Shown: piece after piece, positions 2,752 through 40,152 of the stretch | Layout of the letters: each line of letters begins with the position of its first letter | How positions within the stretch are numbered: the first letter of the stretch is position 1 | Sequence record: NC_049813.1 | Length of the DNA: 44,219 nt | Reading direction: 5' to 3' (one strand) | DNA from: Escherichia phage vB_EcoS-12210I | Program-made: the position numbers and the translations under genes | The notes under the pieces: generated by a model | The model's database searches: none | What the model saw: only the letters and a program-made list of their open reading frames with translations | Told to the model about the DNA's origin: nothing

Positions 2752-3081
2752 ATGAGAATGACAAGCACAAGAAAAAAGGTAATTGATTGCATACTACACT
2801 GCACTGAAGGATGCGATAGGTACAGCCCTACCGCGGATGATGTATCTAGATTGACAGGAATCCAAAGGGCTAACGCAAGGAGGACCTTGCTTGAACTTGA
2901 ATCTTATGGGGTTGTTGAAAGGGTTGAAGTTGCCTCTTACTACTCAGTCTCAAGGCGTATTGACATAAAAAGAAAATGTACAGGATGGAATGTTACAGGC
3001 AAAAAACCAGAGCCAATAGAGAGATTGAAGCTGTCTCAGGATGATGCTGATAAATTGATTAATAAAATTTTTGGCGGTTAA
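2752..3081 (+). CDS. Putative winged-helix DNA-binding regulator, 109 aa
   Basis: GGAGGA RBS; HTH-like segment SPTADDVSRLTGIQRANARRTLLELESYGVV. Confidence 0.5.
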   Translation: MRMTSTRKKVIDCILHCTEGCDRYSPTADDVSRLTGIQRANARRTLLELESYGVVERVEVASYYSVSRRIDIKRKCTGWNVTGKKPEPIERLKLSQDDADKLINKIFGG

Positions 3082-3730
3082 AATGAATATCAAGCCATTT
3101 AAAGATACCAACGTTGCCATGATGAGCACCAAAGAGATCGCGGGGTTAACTGGTAAAGAACATAATAAGGTAATTCGTGATGCCAAGGAAATGATCAATG
3201 ATTTGATACATTATAACAACTCCTCATACTTAAGGAGTGAGGATTATCAAGTACTTACAGATAATTTAGGCTATACATCAGAGATTTTACTTAACAAGGA
3301 ACTTACAGAAACGCTAATAACTGGCTACAGCGTCATTCTTCGTCACAGAGTTATCCGTCGACTTCATGAGCTTGAGGCGTTAGTTAAAAAACAAGCAGAA
3401 GTAATCAGCCAGATGGTAAGCATTAATGAACTTAAAGAGGTTCGAATGATGCTTGGTGTGGCTAATGCGCAGAATGCACACCTGAGCCAGCGCATTGTTG
3501 CAGAGCAAAGAATAAATGAGATCTTACTCATGGATAAGAGTACCGATGAAAAACTAGACATGCTGGCTTGTGAGGCTCGCCAGTGTTGGGCTAGTCGTTC
3601 TGATGAGATGGAGGAAAGATTTAAGTATGAAGCCCAATGCTTCGCCCTTAAAGAAAAGAATGATGCGCTGACTGGATTGATTGAGAATAATCTCGGAATT
3701 GACATTAAGCTGCTGCTGGAAAAGAAATAG
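3071..3730 (+). CDS. Rha-family phage regulatory protein (putative)
   Basis: N-terminal MSTKEIAGLTGKEHNKVIRDAKEM resembles the Rha/pRha motif; coiled-coil-like C-terminus. Confidence 0.5.
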   Translation: MAVKMNIKPFKDTNVAMMSTKEIAGLTGKEHNKVIRDAKEMINDLIHYNNSSYLRSEDYQVLTDNLGYTSEILLNKELTETLITGYSVILRHRVIRRLHELEALVKKQAEVISQMVSINELKEVRMMLGVANAQNAHLSQRIVAEQRINEILLMDKSTDEKLDMLACEARQCWASRSDEMEERFKYEAQCFALKEKNDALTGLIENNLGIDIKLLLEKK

Positions 3731-3786
3731 CACTAATTGCTAAACACTGATCGCAAGGATGCGATACTATTACTCCATCGAAACGA
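3725..3786 (+). promoter_or_regulatory. Promoter-like module copy c: element 3725-3744, TACTAT 3765-3770, start region CATCGAAACGA 3776-3786
   Basis: Full module geometry; overlaps the stop of the Rha-like gene. Confidence 0.6.
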
Positions 3787-3805
3787 AATTACCAAGGAAT
3801 ACAAA

Positions 3806-4036
3806 ATGAATAACTTCATCAAATCAGCAATCATCGCAGCAGCAGTAATCATGGCAGTTGGTTGTTCTTCTGGTCCTCGTCCTGATGGTTGGTGTGCAAC
3901 GTCCTCAAACGGCGTGTGCGTAGCTAAATGGAAAGGTGGCGTAGTTGTTCCGGCTGGTGAAATTGACATTCGCTACGATGGAATTAAAGGCTCCAGTGGC
4001 TCCGTTCGTGATTATGGCTCTAAGGAGTGGAATTAA
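3806..4036 (+). CDS. cor: Cor-like lipoprotein (putative receptor-blocking superinfection exclusion), 76 aa
   Basis: Signal peptide with lipobox (IMAVGC); small size; near tail genes as in T1/phi80/N15; ATG at 3806. Confidence 0.55.
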
Positions 4037-4971
4037 TGACTCAAGGTATATACATAGATCTTAATGATGGAAGGAATCCAATGACAATTACCGCAGGCAT
4101 GCGAGCCTTGAACTTTGCTGGAAACTTCAACGTTTCTAGTGGTGGATTTAGTAAGACGTTCTCAATCCAGGGAAATGAAGGGGCATCAAGGTTCCTTATC
4201 CCTAACAATGGAGCTTACTCATTCGAACTTGATAGAGGTGTTGAGATTTACTACATAAATGGATTCTCATCAACTGCATCAAGAGGAACGATATCGATTG
4301 GCTATGAGAATGGATATTCCGACCGTATAACTCAATTTTCTGGTACTGTTGTTGAGGTACTAAGAGCATCTACAGGCCAGGGTATTTACGTTTCTGACAG
4401 TACTGACTTTACTTCTATAACCACCACTGACAGGCTATTAGTATGCAAGTTTGCTCAGAGAATATCTTTCACCAACACATACACACTGCCAATTTATGGT
4501 ATACCGTTTGGAAAGTGGAACAACTCCGGCGTATCAGTTGAATACAATGGTAGTAACCAGCTGGTATGCACAAACATAAATACGGAAGATACTGGTGACA
4601 CTCCAGGAAGTGTAACTATGGACCTTCTTATATTTCAGATGGTAGCACCAACGCCAGGTCCTGGATTAAACATATTTAATTCAAATGGTGTTTGTACGCT
4701 GTCGACCGTAACTAGGCCATTGGTTGTTTCTGGATTCATAAACCTATCAGGTAGCAATCAGTACATTGGCGAATCTTACTTCCCAATACTCAGATGTGGG
4801 TTTAACACAAGGGCAATACGAGCATATAAGGAGTTGAGAAACAAAGGAATCGTAATGAGCAATGGGTATGTTAGATCTGGCACCGGCTCAAGGATTGTCA
4901 GATACGAGATAGGAAATAGGCCTGACGTAACAATATCAATGCCACTTCCTTACCTTCCTGATATGTATTAA
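4036..4971 (+). CDS. Hypothetical G/S/T/N/Y-rich protein, 311 aa, coupled to the Cor-like gene
   Basis: ATG 4036 overlaps Cor stop (TAATG); AAGGAG RBS; no recognisable catalytic motif. Confidence 0.5.
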   Translation: MTQGIYIDLNDGRNPMTITAGMRALNFAGNFNVSSGGFSKTFSIQGNEGASRFLIPNNGAYSFELDRGVEIYYINGFSSTASRGTISIGYENGYSDRITQFSGTVVEVLRASTGQGIYVSDSTDFTSITTTDRLLVCKFAQRISFTNTYTLPIYGIPFGKWNNSGVSVEYNGSNQLVCTNINTEDTGDTPGSVTMDLLIFQMVAPTPGPGLNIFNSNGVCTLSTVTRPLVVSGFINLSGSNQYIGESYFPILRCGFNTRAIRAYKELRNKGIVMSNGYVRSGTGSRIVRYEIGNRPDVTISMPLPYLPDMY

Positions 4972-4975
4972 ATAT

Positions 4976-4999
4976 AAAGCCCCTTTCGGGGCTTTTGTT
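4976..4999. terminator. Bidirectional rho-independent terminator
   Basis: Hairpin AGCCCC-TTTC-GGGGCT with flanking T/A runs between convergent genes. Confidence 0.7.
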
Positions 5000-7900
5000 T
5001 TAGAACGTACCTACCACAACTCTTCCCCCTCCAGGTAAGTTAACCGTGATTCCGTTTCCGTTAATCTGTACCGTATTATTTATTCCGTTGAATGCGAACT
5101 CACCACTGTTGGCGTACAGTTTACCGCGAATCTCAGCGTTACCAGACTTATCAATCCTCCAGCCTGTGCTTCCTGCTACGTAGTTGCTGGACTGAATAAA
5201 GTCACCAATCTTCGCGTTAGTAATTGAGCCATCGCCAATTACCGCACTTTGGATGATTACGTTTCCGTTCTCTACAACGAAGGGGAGTTGCCACTGACCG
5301 GAACCAGAACCAATGCCGTTACTGATTGCGAATCTGTTTGCGTCAAAAATGAATTGACTACGAACATTACCACCAGTGCCAACAAGCTCCATACTCATGC
5401 CGGATGAATAAGTCTGCCCATTGTATTTCAGGCCAAGGCTAATTCCGTACTGCACTCCAGTTGATGTGGCATTAGAGAATGCGTCTAATTTCTGGTTTAG
5501 AGCCGCCTCGTTTTCACCGAGCCTTGCTGATAGAGCCGTGTCTGCTGTAGTCCTTGCTTCTGTCTCTGTGGCTAATGCAGTCTGAACTTCAGTAATCGAC
5601 GCTACAACTTCATCATCTATCTGCGCCTTAAGCTGTGTGAGAGCCTCTACGCGCGCCTGAGTTTCATCGGCTATGAGATTAACAGCCTGAACATATTCAG
5701 CCTTACGTTTGCCGTTCTCCTTAGTCATACGACGAACATCAGTGTCATTAGCCAATGCGTTCTGAAGGATTGATTCTGCCTGGTTCTGAATGTCCTGATT
5801 CTTTTGAATCGCATTCTGCTCGAGGTATTTGAATCCTTCCGAGCCCTCAATATCAACCTTGATGTAATCATTGATAATATTGGCGTCGTCAGTACTCATG
5901 CCTCTTGCGAAATTAGACCAATCAGATGTGTTACCGATTCTGTCAATCAATCTTGCGCGATACCAGATAACCTTTCCTGGCTGAATTGGTGTGTGCCAGT
6001 ATTCATAGGCTGGATAAGGCAGTAAAGTCAGCAAACTTGCGTTATCAGGATTATAAGTACCGTCACCATTATCAGGAACCTGCTGAAGTTCAGTGTAAGC
6101 AGTATCACCAGATCCTTCAGGAAATCCCCATTTAACACGGATGCCAAATACTTCATCAGTTGATGCAGTGATAACTGTAGGCGCAGACGGGCGGCCAATC
6201 TTACCAGTTAGCGATACAGTTACAATGTCAGACCAGGCAGACACGTTTTCAGTATCTGATACGCTGCGAACCCTAACGTCATAGATTCCTGCGTAAATAC
6301 CTTCGATATCAACCTCTGCGCTAGCTGTTCTGGGTACGTTAATCCAGTTGCCATTCTCTTTTCTCCACTGAACATTGTAGGTTTTAGCATATGGAGCCTT
6401 GTCCCAGCCAATTACCATCGTCTCGACTGACAAGCCCTGAACAACCTTACTGTAGCTTGACACTGTTAAATTCTCAGGCGGCGACAATCTGTCAGGCTCT
6501 ACGATTGAAGTCGGACGATCAACGATGTTAACGCCGTAGTCAATCTCGTCATACTTGTTCGGGTCATACTCTACTGCGGTAATCGTGTACTGGAATGAAT
6601 CCGAACCATCAGAATCCGCTTTTTGAATCCCGGTCACAACATACTGCTGAAGCGCCAGATTATCCTTATCGATTGCGAATACAGTGTCAGGCTGAGCTAC
6701 AAAGCTGAAAGCCGTGTTCAGGTTAATCGTCATACCATCCTCAGATACGCTTGCAATAGTTCTTGCCTCCGGGCTTCCGTCGGGTTTGTTCAGAAGAATT
6801 CTGTCACCTGGAGCTGCGTCAACTTTAAACGGGGTAAAAACCTGCAATCCCTGAACTGACTCAATGCGACCGGAAAGGTTTAACTGATAGTTGCTCGACC
6901 ATGCTGCGTCATTAACCGCAATAACCTCTCCAATCATCGGAATCATGCCTTCCAACCCGGTAGTGAAGCTAATAGTTTCGCTTCTCAGATTGGTTTTAAG
7001 GAGCCACCTACCACGTCTGTTTGCTTCACTTCTGCGAGTACAGCCAATCGCAGTTAAATCTACAGGGTTAAATCCAAAACGACGAGTTGCCTCTAATTCA
7101 AATACCGGCTCTACATCTTGTTGATAGTTGTTCTCTACATCATCAAACTGGACGTTAGCAGTAGTGTAAAGGCTCTTATCGCTGGCAAATGTGCGACTGA
7201 ACAATCCATTAACAACGTTATCATTCGTGAAGATGTAAGATGGATTACGAGGCTTATCAACCACGACGCCAATCTTTTCACCGTCATAGAAGGTTAGGCC
7301 ACGGAAGATTGAACAGATATCACGAATTAGCGTGTAAGCCTCAGCTTTATTCTGGACAACCATATCGCAAAGATAACGAGGCTCTAAACCACCCTTACCA
7401 TCAGGAACCATCTGGTCGCAGAATTGCGCGGCTTCGTACAGCCCCCATTTATCAATCTCTACACCTAGCTCTCGCTGGTCAAGACCATATCGGCGGTTTG
7501 TCACCAAGTCATAAAGAACCCACGCTGGGTTATTTGACCATGCCATCTTGAACAAACCGTTCCATGTCCCGCTGTAAGTTCTGGTTTCAGGGTCGTAGTT
7601 AGTTGGGACCTGAATCAGCTTCCACCTCTTCTTGATTGAGATTGTTGGAATCCCGTTAGGGAAAAGGTCAGAGCCGAACTCAACATAAACCAGGGCCGTA
7701 AGCGGATATCGGAATTTAGCGTCGATTACCTCCTGATAGGTTGTGATCTGCATTCCGTTAACCAGGGTGCTACTTGTTGAGTCTGGTGTGATCTTACGGA
7801 TGCGAACCAATGCGCTATCAAATTCAGCAGGAAGATTTACACGAATGCTGCGGTCGTAACCAGTTGTTGTCTTCCCGTTAGCAACTCCTCGAGTGTATTC

Positions 7901-8410
7901 CTGGTAAGCTCCACCATTAACAGAAAGGTCAATTGCATACTCGCAGGTTGTCCCGTTCAGGTCACCGTTACTCTCTTGCTTAACCAGTCTGGGCCAATAT
8001 AGCTTTACACGAATCGCTGATAGCTGATTATTGTTAACCGCAATGATGTGCGGGGTATCGTTTTTGATTTCCCTTGATACCTGAATTTCTGAGTTGGCAC
8101 CATCAAGGCCAGCGATATAGTCCTGATACTGCGTGCCAGCACGGAACTCAGCGCGAACACCTTCATAGTTGTAACTACCATCCTGATTTTGTACCGGAAC
8201 GTCAGCAAGGTATAAATCCTTCATTGAGAAGTTTGAATCCACCTCTCCGTCAGCAACCGCAAGCAACACCTTAACCTTGTTTAATGAAATAAGGTTGTCT
8301 TCCTGCTCAACTGGTTGATGCTGCTTCTGGCTACCACCTTTAGCACCATAAATCTTAATATCTTCAGCCATATCACAAAGCCTCATGTTTGTTTTGATCA
8401 TTTGTGCCAT
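5000..8410 (-). CDS. Central tail fibre / host specificity protein (lambda J-like), 1136 aa
   Basis: Size and position after I/K/L/M-like genes. Confidence 0.75.
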   Translation of the reverse strand: MAQMIKTNMRLCDMAEDIKIYGAKGGSQKQHQPVEQEDNLISLNKVKVLLAVADGEVDSNFSMKDLYLADVPVQNQDGSYNYEGVRAEFRAGTQYQDYIAGLDGANSEIQVSREIKNDTPHIIAVNNNQLSAIRVKLYWPRLVKQESNGDLNGTTCEYAIDLSVNGGAYQEYTRGVANGKTTTGYDRSIRVNLPAEFDSALVRIRKITPDSTSSTLVNGMQITTYQEVIDAKFRYPLTALVYVEFGSDLFPNGIPTISIKKRWKLIQVPTNYDPETRTYSGTWNGLFKMAWSNNPAWVLYDLVTNRRYGLDQRELGVEIDKWGLYEAAQFCDQMVPDGKGGLEPRYLCDMVVQNKAEAYTLIRDICSIFRGLTFYDGEKIGVVVDKPRNPSYIFTNDNVVNGLFSRTFASDKSLYTTANVQFDDVENNYQQDVEPVFELEATRRFGFNPVDLTAIGCTRRSEANRRGRWLLKTNLRSETISFTTGLEGMIPMIGEVIAVNDAAWSSNYQLNLSGRIESVQGLQVFTPFKVDAAPGDRILLNKPDGSPEARTIASVSEDGMTINLNTAFSFVAQPDTVFAIDKDNLALQQYVVTGIQKADSDGSDSFQYTITAVEYDPNKYDEIDYGVNIVDRPTSIVEPDRLSPPENLTVSSYSKVVQGLSVETMVIGWDKAPYAKTYNVQWRKENGNWINVPRTASAEVDIEGIYAGIYDVRVRSVSDTENVSAWSDIVTVSLTGKIGRPSAPTVITASTDEVFGIRVKWGFPEGSGDTAYTELQQVPDNGDGTYNPDNASLLTLLPYPAYEYWHTPIQPGKVIWYRARLIDRIGNTSDWSNFARGMSTDDANIINDYIKVDIEGSEGFKYLEQNAIQKNQDIQNQAESILQNALANDTDVRRMTKENGKRKAEYVQAVNLIADETQARVEALTQLKAQIDDEVVASITEVQTALATETEARTTADTALSARLGENEAALNQKLDAFSNATSTGVQYGISLGLKYNGQTYSSGMSMELVGTGGNVRSQFIFDANRFAISNGIGSGSGQWQLPFVVENGNVIIQSAVIGDGSITNAKIGDFIQSSNYVAGSTGWRIDKSGNAEIRGKLYANSGEFAFNGINNTVQINGNGITVNLPGGGRVVVGTF

Positions 8411-25566: not shown

Positions 25567-25612
25567 ATTATATGCCATCCATGGCGACTGCGTTGAGCAA
25601 TTCGTGCTATTT
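25567..25612 (-). promoter_or_regulatory. Promoter-like module copy e: element 25593-25612, TATAAT 25567-25572
   Basis: Element and hexamer with 20-bp spacer. Confidence 0.55.
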
Positions 25613-27797: not shown

Positions 27798-27843
27798 ATC
27801 ATAGCTGACTACCCGATCCATTGTTTAGCAATTCGTGCTATTT
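27798..27843 (-). promoter_or_regulatory. Promoter-like module copy i: element 27824-27843, TATGAT 27798-27803
   Basis: Element and hexamer with 20-bp spacer; CATCGAAAACA start region. Confidence 0.55.
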
Positions 27844-33072: not shown

Positions 33073-33150
33073 ATGGTTAAGTTCTTCGCTGGTATGCTGA
33101 CTGCTGTTGCAATCATGGATAACGTAGCTATTTATCTTGGCGTGTACTGA
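33073..33150 (+). CDS. Small hydrophobic peptide, 25 aa
   Basis: AGGAAAGGAAAA RBS; MVKFFAGMLTAVAIMDNVAIYLGVY. Confidence 0.35.
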   Translation: MVKFFAGMLTAVAIMDNVAIYLGVY

Positions 33151-33209
33151 TAGCACAAATTGCTAAATAAAAGAAAAACAAAAAGAGCATAGTTACTTCA
33201 TAGAAAACA
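33150..33209 (+). promoter_or_regulatory. Promoter-like module copy m: element 33150-33167, CATAGT 33188-33193, start region CATAGAAAACA
   Basis: Module geometry with a variant start region. Confidence 0.5.
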
Positions 33210-37077: not shown

Positions 37078-37123
37078 ATAATACACCACCCCACCGATTC
37101 ATCTTTAGCAATTAGTGCTATTT
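37078..37123 (-). promoter_or_regulatory. Promoter-like module copy o: element 37104-37123, TATTAT 37078-37083
   Basis: Element and hexamer with 20-bp spacer; start region CATCGAAACGAAACGA. Confidence 0.6.
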
Positions 37124-39629: not shown

Positions 39630-40103
39630 ATGAATGCAGTAGACAAGCGAACCATTAACGGCAATAACGGAACCATCCGCACTGAAGATAAAAAGCAGCG
39701 AAAACGACCTTCAGGTTACTACGTTTTAAAAGATGAAGTAAGAGCGGGTTTACGTGCGCGGCTGGAAATTGTTCTTGATTTCTTCGGCACAAAGGCAAAT
39801 ATGGCAAAGCAATTAAAGGTAACACCACAGGCTGTAGAAGAATGGTTTAAGCGCGGCATGATGTCGGCGCGTGGTGCTCAGCTTTCGCACAACTACTATA
39901 AGCGAAATGGAGAAGGTTTTCGCGCAACATTCTGCCGACCAGACTTGCAATTCGACGGCAACGGCAAGCCGCTGACACTTCGGTGCAAAAAACGCCACAT
40001 GCTTCGCGTGGTTACCGAGGCTGAATTAGCCACCAAGCCAGAGTGTCGGTCCTGGCGCAAAATTAAGGCCGCTAACGAAGCAGCACGGAAAGCTAAAGAG
40101 TAA
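39630..40103 (+). CDS. Putative HTH DNA-binding protein, 157 aa
   Basis: GAGG RBS; HTH-like KANMAKQLKVTPQAVEEWFKRG. Confidence 0.45.
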   Translation: MNAVDKRTINGNNGTIRTEDKKQRKRPSGYYVLKDEVRAGLRARLEIVLDFFGTKANMAKQLKVTPQAVEEWFKRGMMSARGAQLSHNYYKRNGEGFRATFCRPDLQFDGNGKPLTLRCKKRHMLRVVTEAELATKPECRSWRKIKAANEAARKAKE

Positions 40104-40106
40104 GGG

Positions 40107-40152
40107 AAATAGCACTAATTGATAAACAGTGGCGCTATGCATTGTGTATAGT
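40107..40152 (+). promoter_or_regulatory. Promoter-like module copy p: element 40107-40126, TATAGT 40147-40152
   Basis: Element and hexamer with 20-bp spacer. Confidence 0.55.

Follow-up and report, generated by a model that had tools for sequence, protein, structure and literature searches.

The two genes that adjoin the tail-tip gene in the genome of Escherichia phage vB_EcoS-12210I very probably constitute an LptD-type host-recognition cassette of small siphoviruses, i.e., a receptor-binding protein (RBP) of 311 amino acids (aa) and a cognate exclusion lipoprotein of 76 aa. The analyzed window (NC_049813.1) is the complete phage genome of 44,219 bp, classified in its GenBank record under Drexlerviridae, Braunvirinae, Veterinaerplatzvirus. 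The queried 2-kb region is identical in 41 GenBank records (Escherichia phage vB_EcoS-12397V and its siblings), and the records of the Veterinaerplatzvirus phages label both cassette genes "hypothetical protein." The vB_EcoS-12397V group came from Austrian clinical samples, with E. coli DSM 12242 as the isolation host, and a receptor is nowhere mentioned in its source paper (PMC6834657). The features of the locus are as follows (coordinates are those of the window).

3727-3747, plus strand: candidate palindromic promoter/operator module (TAGCA-N5-TGCTA), a repeated motif; ATAGCACTAATTGCTAAACAC
3806-4036, plus strand: predicted Rtp45-type superinfection-exclusion lipoprotein, 76-aa precursor (PF24052; match to PDB 9rps_D)
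4022-4038, plus strand: coupling junction (3' end of the lipoprotein gene with an internal AAGGAG ribosome-binding site, followed by the TAATG stop/start overlap)
4036-4971, plus strand: predicted LptD-type RBP, 311 aa, of the Rtp44/RBP-Oekolampad family, DUF6453 (PF20051; PDB 9rpt_C; AlphaFold2 fold)
4976-4995, unstranded: bidirectional intrinsic terminator serving the RBP operon and the convergent J gene (hairpin and T-runs)
5000-8410, minus strand: J-like tail-tip gene, 1136 aa (NCBIfam lambda_TipJ, 1.7e-112)
5003-5182, minus strand: last ~60 residues of the J-like tail-tip protein, where the RBP likely docks (block-wise J identity)

Both cassette genes lie on the plus strand (lipoprotein gene, ATG at 3806 and TAA at 4034-4036; 311-aa gene, ATG at 4036 and TAA at 4969-4971) and converge on the J-like gene, with 28 nt between the stop of the J-like gene and that of the 311-aa gene. 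This agrees with the original prediction, which had placed the pair against the end of the J-like gene and in opposite orientation to the tail genes. The upstream neighbors in the window are an HTH gene and a Rha/anti-repressor-like gene. We regard both open reading frames as real genes, given their matches to curated Pfam families (121.6 and 395 bits) and the occurrence of homologs of the 311-aa protein in 333 phage records (tblastn). Further homologs were found in metagenomic sequences and bacterial chromosomes, all with PF20051. The locus was compared with those of five phages (i.e., JeanPiccard [Bas02], AugustePiccard [Bas01], RTP, TheodorHerzl [Bas14], and Oekolampad [Bas18]), and all five carry a small lipoprotein gene followed by a gene for ~311 to 321 aa, convergent to a J-like gene.

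The lipoprotein gene is preceded by a ribosome-binding site (AAGGA at 3794-3798, 7 nt 5' of the ATG). Its product begins with a hydrophobic signal peptide (residues 1 to 19; maximum hydropathy of 2.36 in a 15-residue window, from residue 4) that ends in an A-V-G-C lipobox, so that the predicted 76-aa lipoprotein is borne out by the sequence. The lipobox Cys20 (3863-3865) is followed by Ser-Ser, and position +2 (i.e., Ser) holds no Lol-avoidance residue. Under the +2 rule, Ser at this position leads to outer-membrane sorting, and the lipoprotein is thus predicted to reside in the outer membrane. It matched the Pfam "Phage lipoprotein family" PF24052 (1.4e-35; 121.6 bits; cutoff, 27) and PHROG 4281, while no NCBIfam family was found for it or for the 311-aa protein. 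Among all PDB sequences, the sole informative chain was 9rps_D, i.e., Rtp45 of phage RTP (E, 1.1e-41; residues 1 to 76). Identities to the homologs were 92% (Bas02), 88% (Bas01), 84% (RTP Rtp45), 82% (Bas14), and 32% (Bas18), and residues C20, C30, and C38 were invariant in six homologs. Cys30 and Cys38 form a disulfide in the Rtp45-LptDE structure (PMC12685063). The 19-residue stretch that matches the Rtp45 beta-hairpin contains three differences (N/G, V/I, and V/I). The 84% identity to a protein seen on LptDE upholds the receptor-blocking role that had been proposed for the lipoprotein, which presumably exerts superinfection exclusion in vivo.

The lipoprotein had also been called Cor-like, and a small phage lipoprotein that adjoins tail genes could be a true Cor or Llp member that blocks FhuA and has no functional relationship to the downstream gene. 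T1 Cor does score on the PF24052 model, at 17.7 bits, under the cutoff of 27. The BLASTP alignment between the lipoprotein and T1 Cor (20 bits; 14/38 identities) spans residues 8 to 45, in essence the signal peptide and the lipobox. Pfam and PHROGs yielded no Cor or Llp family for the lipoprotein at E values of ≤1, and a phmmer search of all PDB chains (E, ≤10) returned no Llp, solely Rtp45 and an unrelated dehydratase. A FhuA-Llp structure has been published (PMC9586334). Together with the identity to an LptDE-bound protein, these results leave the FhuA-blocking explanation with next to no probability. Membership in the Cor family was ruled out on the basis of the confinement of the match to the signal peptide and lipobox, and the PDB search gave no sign of homology to Llp. 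"Cor-like" therefore stands as a functional analogy and not as a demonstrable homology; a very remote kinship between the lipoprotein and Cor is conceivable.

The 311-aa protein is rich in Gly (11%), Ser (10%), Thr (9%), Asn (8%), Ile (8%), and Tyr (5.5%). It had been described as having no recognizable motif, a statement that is overturned by an essentially full-length match to DUF6453 (PF20051; 2.6e-118; 395 bits; cutoff, 25), in which residues 4 to 291 align with positions 1 to 290 of the 291-position profile. On this profile, the Oekolampad RBP reaches 405 bits. Among all PDB sequences, one informative chain was found for the 311-aa protein, namely, 9rpt_C ("Tail fiber protein"; E, 9.7e-39; residues 2 to 311). 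Identities were 96% (Bas02), 86% (Bas14), 80% (Bas01), 79% (Rtp44), and, over the full length, 33% (Bas18). An AlphaFold2 model built from a 27-sequence alignment (pLDDT, 86.6; pTM, 0.87) was almost entirely beta, so that the Gly/Ser/Thr/Asn/Tyr-rich, beta-rich character noted earlier is supported by both composition and model. In a Foldseek search of the PDB, the model matched a single solved fold, i.e., 9rpt_C (E, 3.5e-17; probability, 1.00; target-normalized TM, 0.88), and the next match had an E value of 0.31. The structure prediction that had been proposed as a check thus led to an RBP bound to LptDE. It had been left open whether the protein is a receptor-binding or a receptor-modifying partner; the Bas02 identity and the homology to 9rpt_C speak for binding, and the modifying alternative falls away.

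PHROG 1265, to which the 311-aa protein belongs, is categorized as "moron... membrane protein," a label that also appears in several GenBank records, and the gene and the tail operon are transcribed in opposite directions. The protein might accordingly be a nonvirion membrane protein of the moron type that acts with the lipoprotein inside the infected cell. Neither a transmembrane segment (maximum KD19, 1.28) nor a signal peptide was detected in it, and the membrane protein label was ruled out on the basis of the lack of a transmembrane segment. The Oekolampad homolog is soluble and attaches to LptDE from the extracellular side (PMC12685063). Moreover, the C terminus of J co-varies with the type of the 311-aa protein, as described below. 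We therefore consider a role as a host-cell moron extremely unlikely and treat the 311-aa protein as an RBP, which is probably attached to J and present in virions.

The cassette is a close allele of a published and structurally characterized module and is thus already known. Maffei et al. (2021) described "bona fide RBP loci" directly 3' of gpJ homologs in Drexlerviridae, Dhillonvirus, Nonagvirus, and Seuratvirus, each with genes for a dedicated RBP and for the superinfection-exclusion protein that goes with it, and with allelic types that match one terminal receptor (PMC8594841). Spontaneous resistance to Bas01, Bas02, Bas14, and Bas18 was mapped to lptD, and LptD was predicted as the receptor of RTP from the ~93% nucleotide identity between rtp44/rtp45 and the Bas01 locus (PMC8594841). 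LptD dependence was later confirmed for another member, OzMSK, and the conserved residues of the RBP were found to cluster at its base, including the N terminus, and not at the LptD-binding tip (Black et al. 2025; PMC13035648).

Two cryo-EM structures define the module at the protein level, as described by Dunbar et al. (PNAS 2025; PMC12685063). The entry 9rpt contains Shigella flexneri LptDE with the RBP of Oekolampad (Bas18), which inserts deeply into open-state LptDE and contacts EL3-5 and EL11; both binding and infection are lost with the LptD point mutants D352Y and Y671N. The entry 9rps contains LptDE with the lipoprotein Rtp45 of phage RTP, which lies between LptE and LptM on the periplasmic side. 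Its hairpin reaches up through the lumen and moves EL4 by as much as 20 Å, an arrangement incompatible with RBP binding. In the accessible sections of the report, the exclusion role of Rtp45 was deduced from this structure. Gln299 of the Oekolampad RBP, a named LptD contact, aligns at an indel between that RBP and the 311-aa protein. Since the solved RBP is only 33% identical to the 311-aa protein and since Gln299 falls at this indel, the contact details need not transfer.

The 96% identity to the Bas02 protein suggests that the 311-aa allele binds LptD as its relatives do. Alternatively, the architecture of the cassette could have been kept while the RBP allele was retargeted to an outer-membrane protein other than LptD. 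The RBP loci of small siphoviruses are horizontally exchanged and diverge fast (PMC8594841), and in AKS96 the RBP has fallen to 40% identity beside a lipoprotein at 78%, a pattern in keeping with such a change. The allele in the window is, however, 96% identical to that of Bas02 and 80 to 86% identical to those of Bas01 and Bas14, all of which are experimentally LptD dependent; the accompanying lipoprotein shares 84% identity with Rtp45, which binds LptDE; and the proteins of the T1 locus, which is of the FhuA type, are not DUF6453 members. Retargeting is therefore very unlikely, and LptD is the likely terminal receptor of the Veterinaerplatzvirus phages from Austrian clinical samples.

The tail-tip protein bears on the attachment of the RBP. 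J proteins were compared block by block between the window and the Dhillonvirus phage Bas14 and between the window and T1, in which the locus downstream of J is the FhuA-type one. Identity to the Bas14 J protein was 28 to 51% over most of the length and 15 to 50% in the 200 residues before the tip, vs 65 to 90% in the last ~60 residues. Identity to the T1 J protein dropped from 40 to 80% to 10 to 45% over the C-terminal stretch. The rise toward Bas14 and the fall toward T1 suggest that the C-terminal tip of J travels with the RBP/lipoprotein cassette, and the J C terminus co-varies with the RBP type across phage families. On these alignments, the tip is likely the site at which the RBP docks. 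As a separate observation, the comparison maps a mosaic boundary inside J.

The two genes are arranged for coupled translation. An AAGGAG site (4022-4027) lies within the end of the lipoprotein gene, 8 nt 5' of the ATG of the 311-aa gene, and the TAATG stop/start overlap that had been proposed is present in the sequence, with base 4036 common to both genes. A 1-nt overlap of the lipoprotein and RBP genes is also annotated in Bas01, Bas02, RTP, Bas14, and AKS96. Downstream, the terminator hairpin has an 8-bp GC-rich stem (AAAGCCCC/GGGGCTTT), and T-runs are present on both strands. Bas01, Bas02, RTP, and Bas14 carry this stem unchanged; Bas14 differs at one base of the loop.

The palindrome at 3727-3747 is evidently the promoter element ("module c") from which the original prediction had the lipoprotein gene driven. 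It shares bases with the stop codon of the Rha-like gene on its 5' side and lies 59 nt before the lipoprotein ATG. The motif occurs in eight copies in the genome vs zero expected by chance, and each copy is followed, ~22 nt on, by a -10-like hexamer and then by the conserved leader CCATCGAAAC(G/A)AA, a ribosome-binding site, and an ATG. The module is conserved 5' of the rtp45 homologs in Bas01, Bas02, and RTP. A scan of 3731-3805 for consensus sigma-70 sites revealed no canonical promoter, and region-wide counts equaled the shuffled expectation. The element itself is real as a repeated module, and a canonical sigma-70 site is not part of it; the repeated palindromic module is the better promoter candidate. 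Its TTGCTA half-site lies ~5 nt too far upstream for a standard -35 element, which places the center of the palindrome near -42. A homolog of the RTP regulator Rtp52 (97% identical) is encoded in the window at 39630-40103. In the 2006 description of the RTP genome, Wietzorrek et al. reportedly proposed about ten conserved inverted repeats 5' of RTP genes as Rtp52 sites. If the palindromes are these proposed sites, the element has already been described.

We propose the following sequence of events for the cassette. The phage-specific promoter module would drive both genes on one transcript, and their translation would be coupled. The conserved N-terminal/base region of the 311-aa RBP would attach noncovalently to the C-terminal tip of the J-like protein, and the distal loops of the RBP would enter LptDE, the LPS translocon, at its extracellular mouth, a step that would commit the particle to DNA injection. 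After export and lipidation at Cys20, the 76-aa protein would reach the inner leaflet of the outer membrane, where it may bind the periplasmic side of LptDE, push its beta-hairpin up the LptD lumen, and displace extracellular loop 4. The RBPs of incoming or newly released phage could then no longer bind. Such a receptor block would result in superinfection exclusion and would protect the progeny from receptor in cell debris.

Nothing in this cassette is new in kind, given that the concept of the locus was published in 2021 and the structures followed in 2025. The small additions are the prediction of LptD as the receptor of this phage group, the mosaic boundary inside J, and the asymmetry of conservation between the lipoprotein and the RBP. 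The LptD assignment should be useful for host range prediction and for the construction of phage-resistant production strains (e.g., by deletion of LptD loop 11). Since the lipoprotein is more conserved than the RBP and since the Rtp45 hairpin threads the LptD lumen, it is conceivable that the lipoprotein broadly cross-excludes all LptD-targeting siphoviruses or throttles LPS export in the infected cell, a proposal that we consider unlikely. If LPS export were throttled, the lipoprotein would be a naturally occurring protein that inhibits an essential target of antibiotics.

Compared with known systems, the cassette most closely resembles those of Bas01, Bas02, RTP, and Bas14, which share with the window the gene lengths (231 and 936 nt), the 1-nt overlap, and the terminator. 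The Bas02 genes are bas02_0025 and bas02_0024, and their RTP counterparts are rtp45 and rtp44. The ~75 nt 5' of the lipoprotein gene are common to the window, Bas01, Bas02, and RTP and are not shared by Bas14. The gene directly upstream of the cassette differs, being that for a Dcm-like methyltransferase in Bas01 and Bas02 and a divergent lateral tail fiber gene in Dhillonvirus, whereas the window carries the HTH and Rha/anti-repressor-like genes. In the comparison with AKS96, the lipoprotein is far more conserved (78% identity) than the RBP (40%). The cassette of Oekolampad has in common with the window the Pfam families (DUF6453 and PF24052), the fold, and the position of the locus, but the identities are low (33% for the RBP and 32% for the lipoprotein), with indels in loops and near the C terminus, and its two genes are separated by a 2-nt gap instead of overlapping by 1 nt.

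The original prediction had likened the pair to the llp and receptor-binding gene neighborhood of T5, and this analogy holds, the closest characterized relatives being just such a pair acting on LptD. As in T5 (pb5 [oad]/Llp) and in T1, phi80, and N15 (Cor), an RBP on the tip of a J-like protein or central fiber is combined with a small outer-membrane lipoprotein that inactivates the phage's own receptor from the periplasm. The mature lipoproteins share no detectable homology with T5 Llp or T1 Cor, and the receptor is FhuA in the T5 Llp and the T1, phi80, and N15 Cor systems vs LptDE in the type found in the window. The mode of blocking also differs: proteins of the Rtp45 type displace a loop sterically through the barrel lumen, whereas Llp and Cor act by long-range allostery (PMC12685063).

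Sequence comparisons indicate that the tip of the J-like tail protein, the receptor-binding protein (RBP; 311 amino acids, DUF6453) and the exclusion lipoprotein constitute a horizontally exchanged host-range cassette. The tip is included because a mosaic boundary lies inside J:

5003-5182, - strand, C-terminal tip of J (last ~60 codons)

This segment shares 65 to 90% identity with the Dhillonvirus phage Bas14, while the preceding 200 residues share only 15 to 50%, and it diverges from the J protein of T1 (a phage with an FhuA-type locus downstream).

The other two members of the cassette differ in conservation. Between phage AKS96 (locus L009, 1256 to 2463) and the window (3806 to 4971), the lipoproteins are 78% identical and the RBPs only 40%; in many Rogunavirinae phages, the nucleotide match to the query is confined to the lipoprotein gene. 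This asymmetry suggests that the RBP diversifies fast against the surface loops of LptD and that the blocker, which faces the periplasm, is held constant. One RBP motif is invariant or almost so in an alignment of 27 homologues:

4399-4410, S-T-D-F motif (RBP residues 122 to 125)

It falls in the sole segment of the AlphaFold2 model with pLDDT below 50. In the cryo-EM map of the Bas18 RBP on LptDE (PMC12685063), the phage-proximal part of the RBP is disordered. The motif may sit in this part and could therefore be a J-docking element.

The slot directly 5' of the cassette (2752 to 3730, + strand) varies between phages. In the window it holds two genes:

within 2752-3730, + strand, winged-helix/HTH protein (109 amino acids)
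within 2752-3730, + strand, Rha/anti-repressor-like protein (PHROG 8235, 2.5e-78)

In phages Bas01 and Bas02, this slot is instead occupied by a Dcm-like methyltransferase; in AKS96, by a divergent anti-repressor. The anti-repressor-like gene is present although the phage is apparently virulent.

Eight copies of the palindrome ATAGCAC(N)AATTGCTAAA (core TAGCA-N5-TGCTA) occur in the window:

675-695, - strand, palindrome
2543-2563, + strand, palindrome
3727-3747, + strand, palindrome
25590-25610, - strand, palindrome
27821-27841, - strand, palindrome
33150-33170, + strand, palindrome
37101-37121, - strand, palindrome
40109-40129, + strand, palindrome

All eight are followed after ~22 nt by a -10-like hexamer, and downstream by a conserved leader, CCATCGAAAC(G/A)AA, then an RBS and ATG. 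The spacing places the palindrome center near -42, a position more like that of a class-II activator or operator site than a plain -35 element. The core is also present in T1, RTP, Bas01, and Bas02. The RTP genome paper reportedly attributed a set of inverted repeats to Rtp52, and the eight palindromes are probably these repeats. The candidate binder of the palindromes is encoded between the helicase and primase genes:

39630-40103, + strand, HTH protein (157 amino acids; 97% identity to RTP Rtp52, a putative transcriptional regulator)

This protein also weakly matches a P22_Cro-type HTH.

DUF6453 extends beyond these phages. Homologues P0040 to P0042, P0045, P0050, and P0052 lie on long contigs from bacteria (E. 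coli, Salmonella, Enterobacter, and Cronobacter), presumably in prophages, and the gene also occurs in several "Campylobacter phage" records, the hosts of which look misattributed. In Klebsiella Webervirus-like phages (hits H72 to H89 and H122 to H136), the Rtp45-like nucleotide match is located ~10 kb from the DUF6453 gene rather than adjacent to it.
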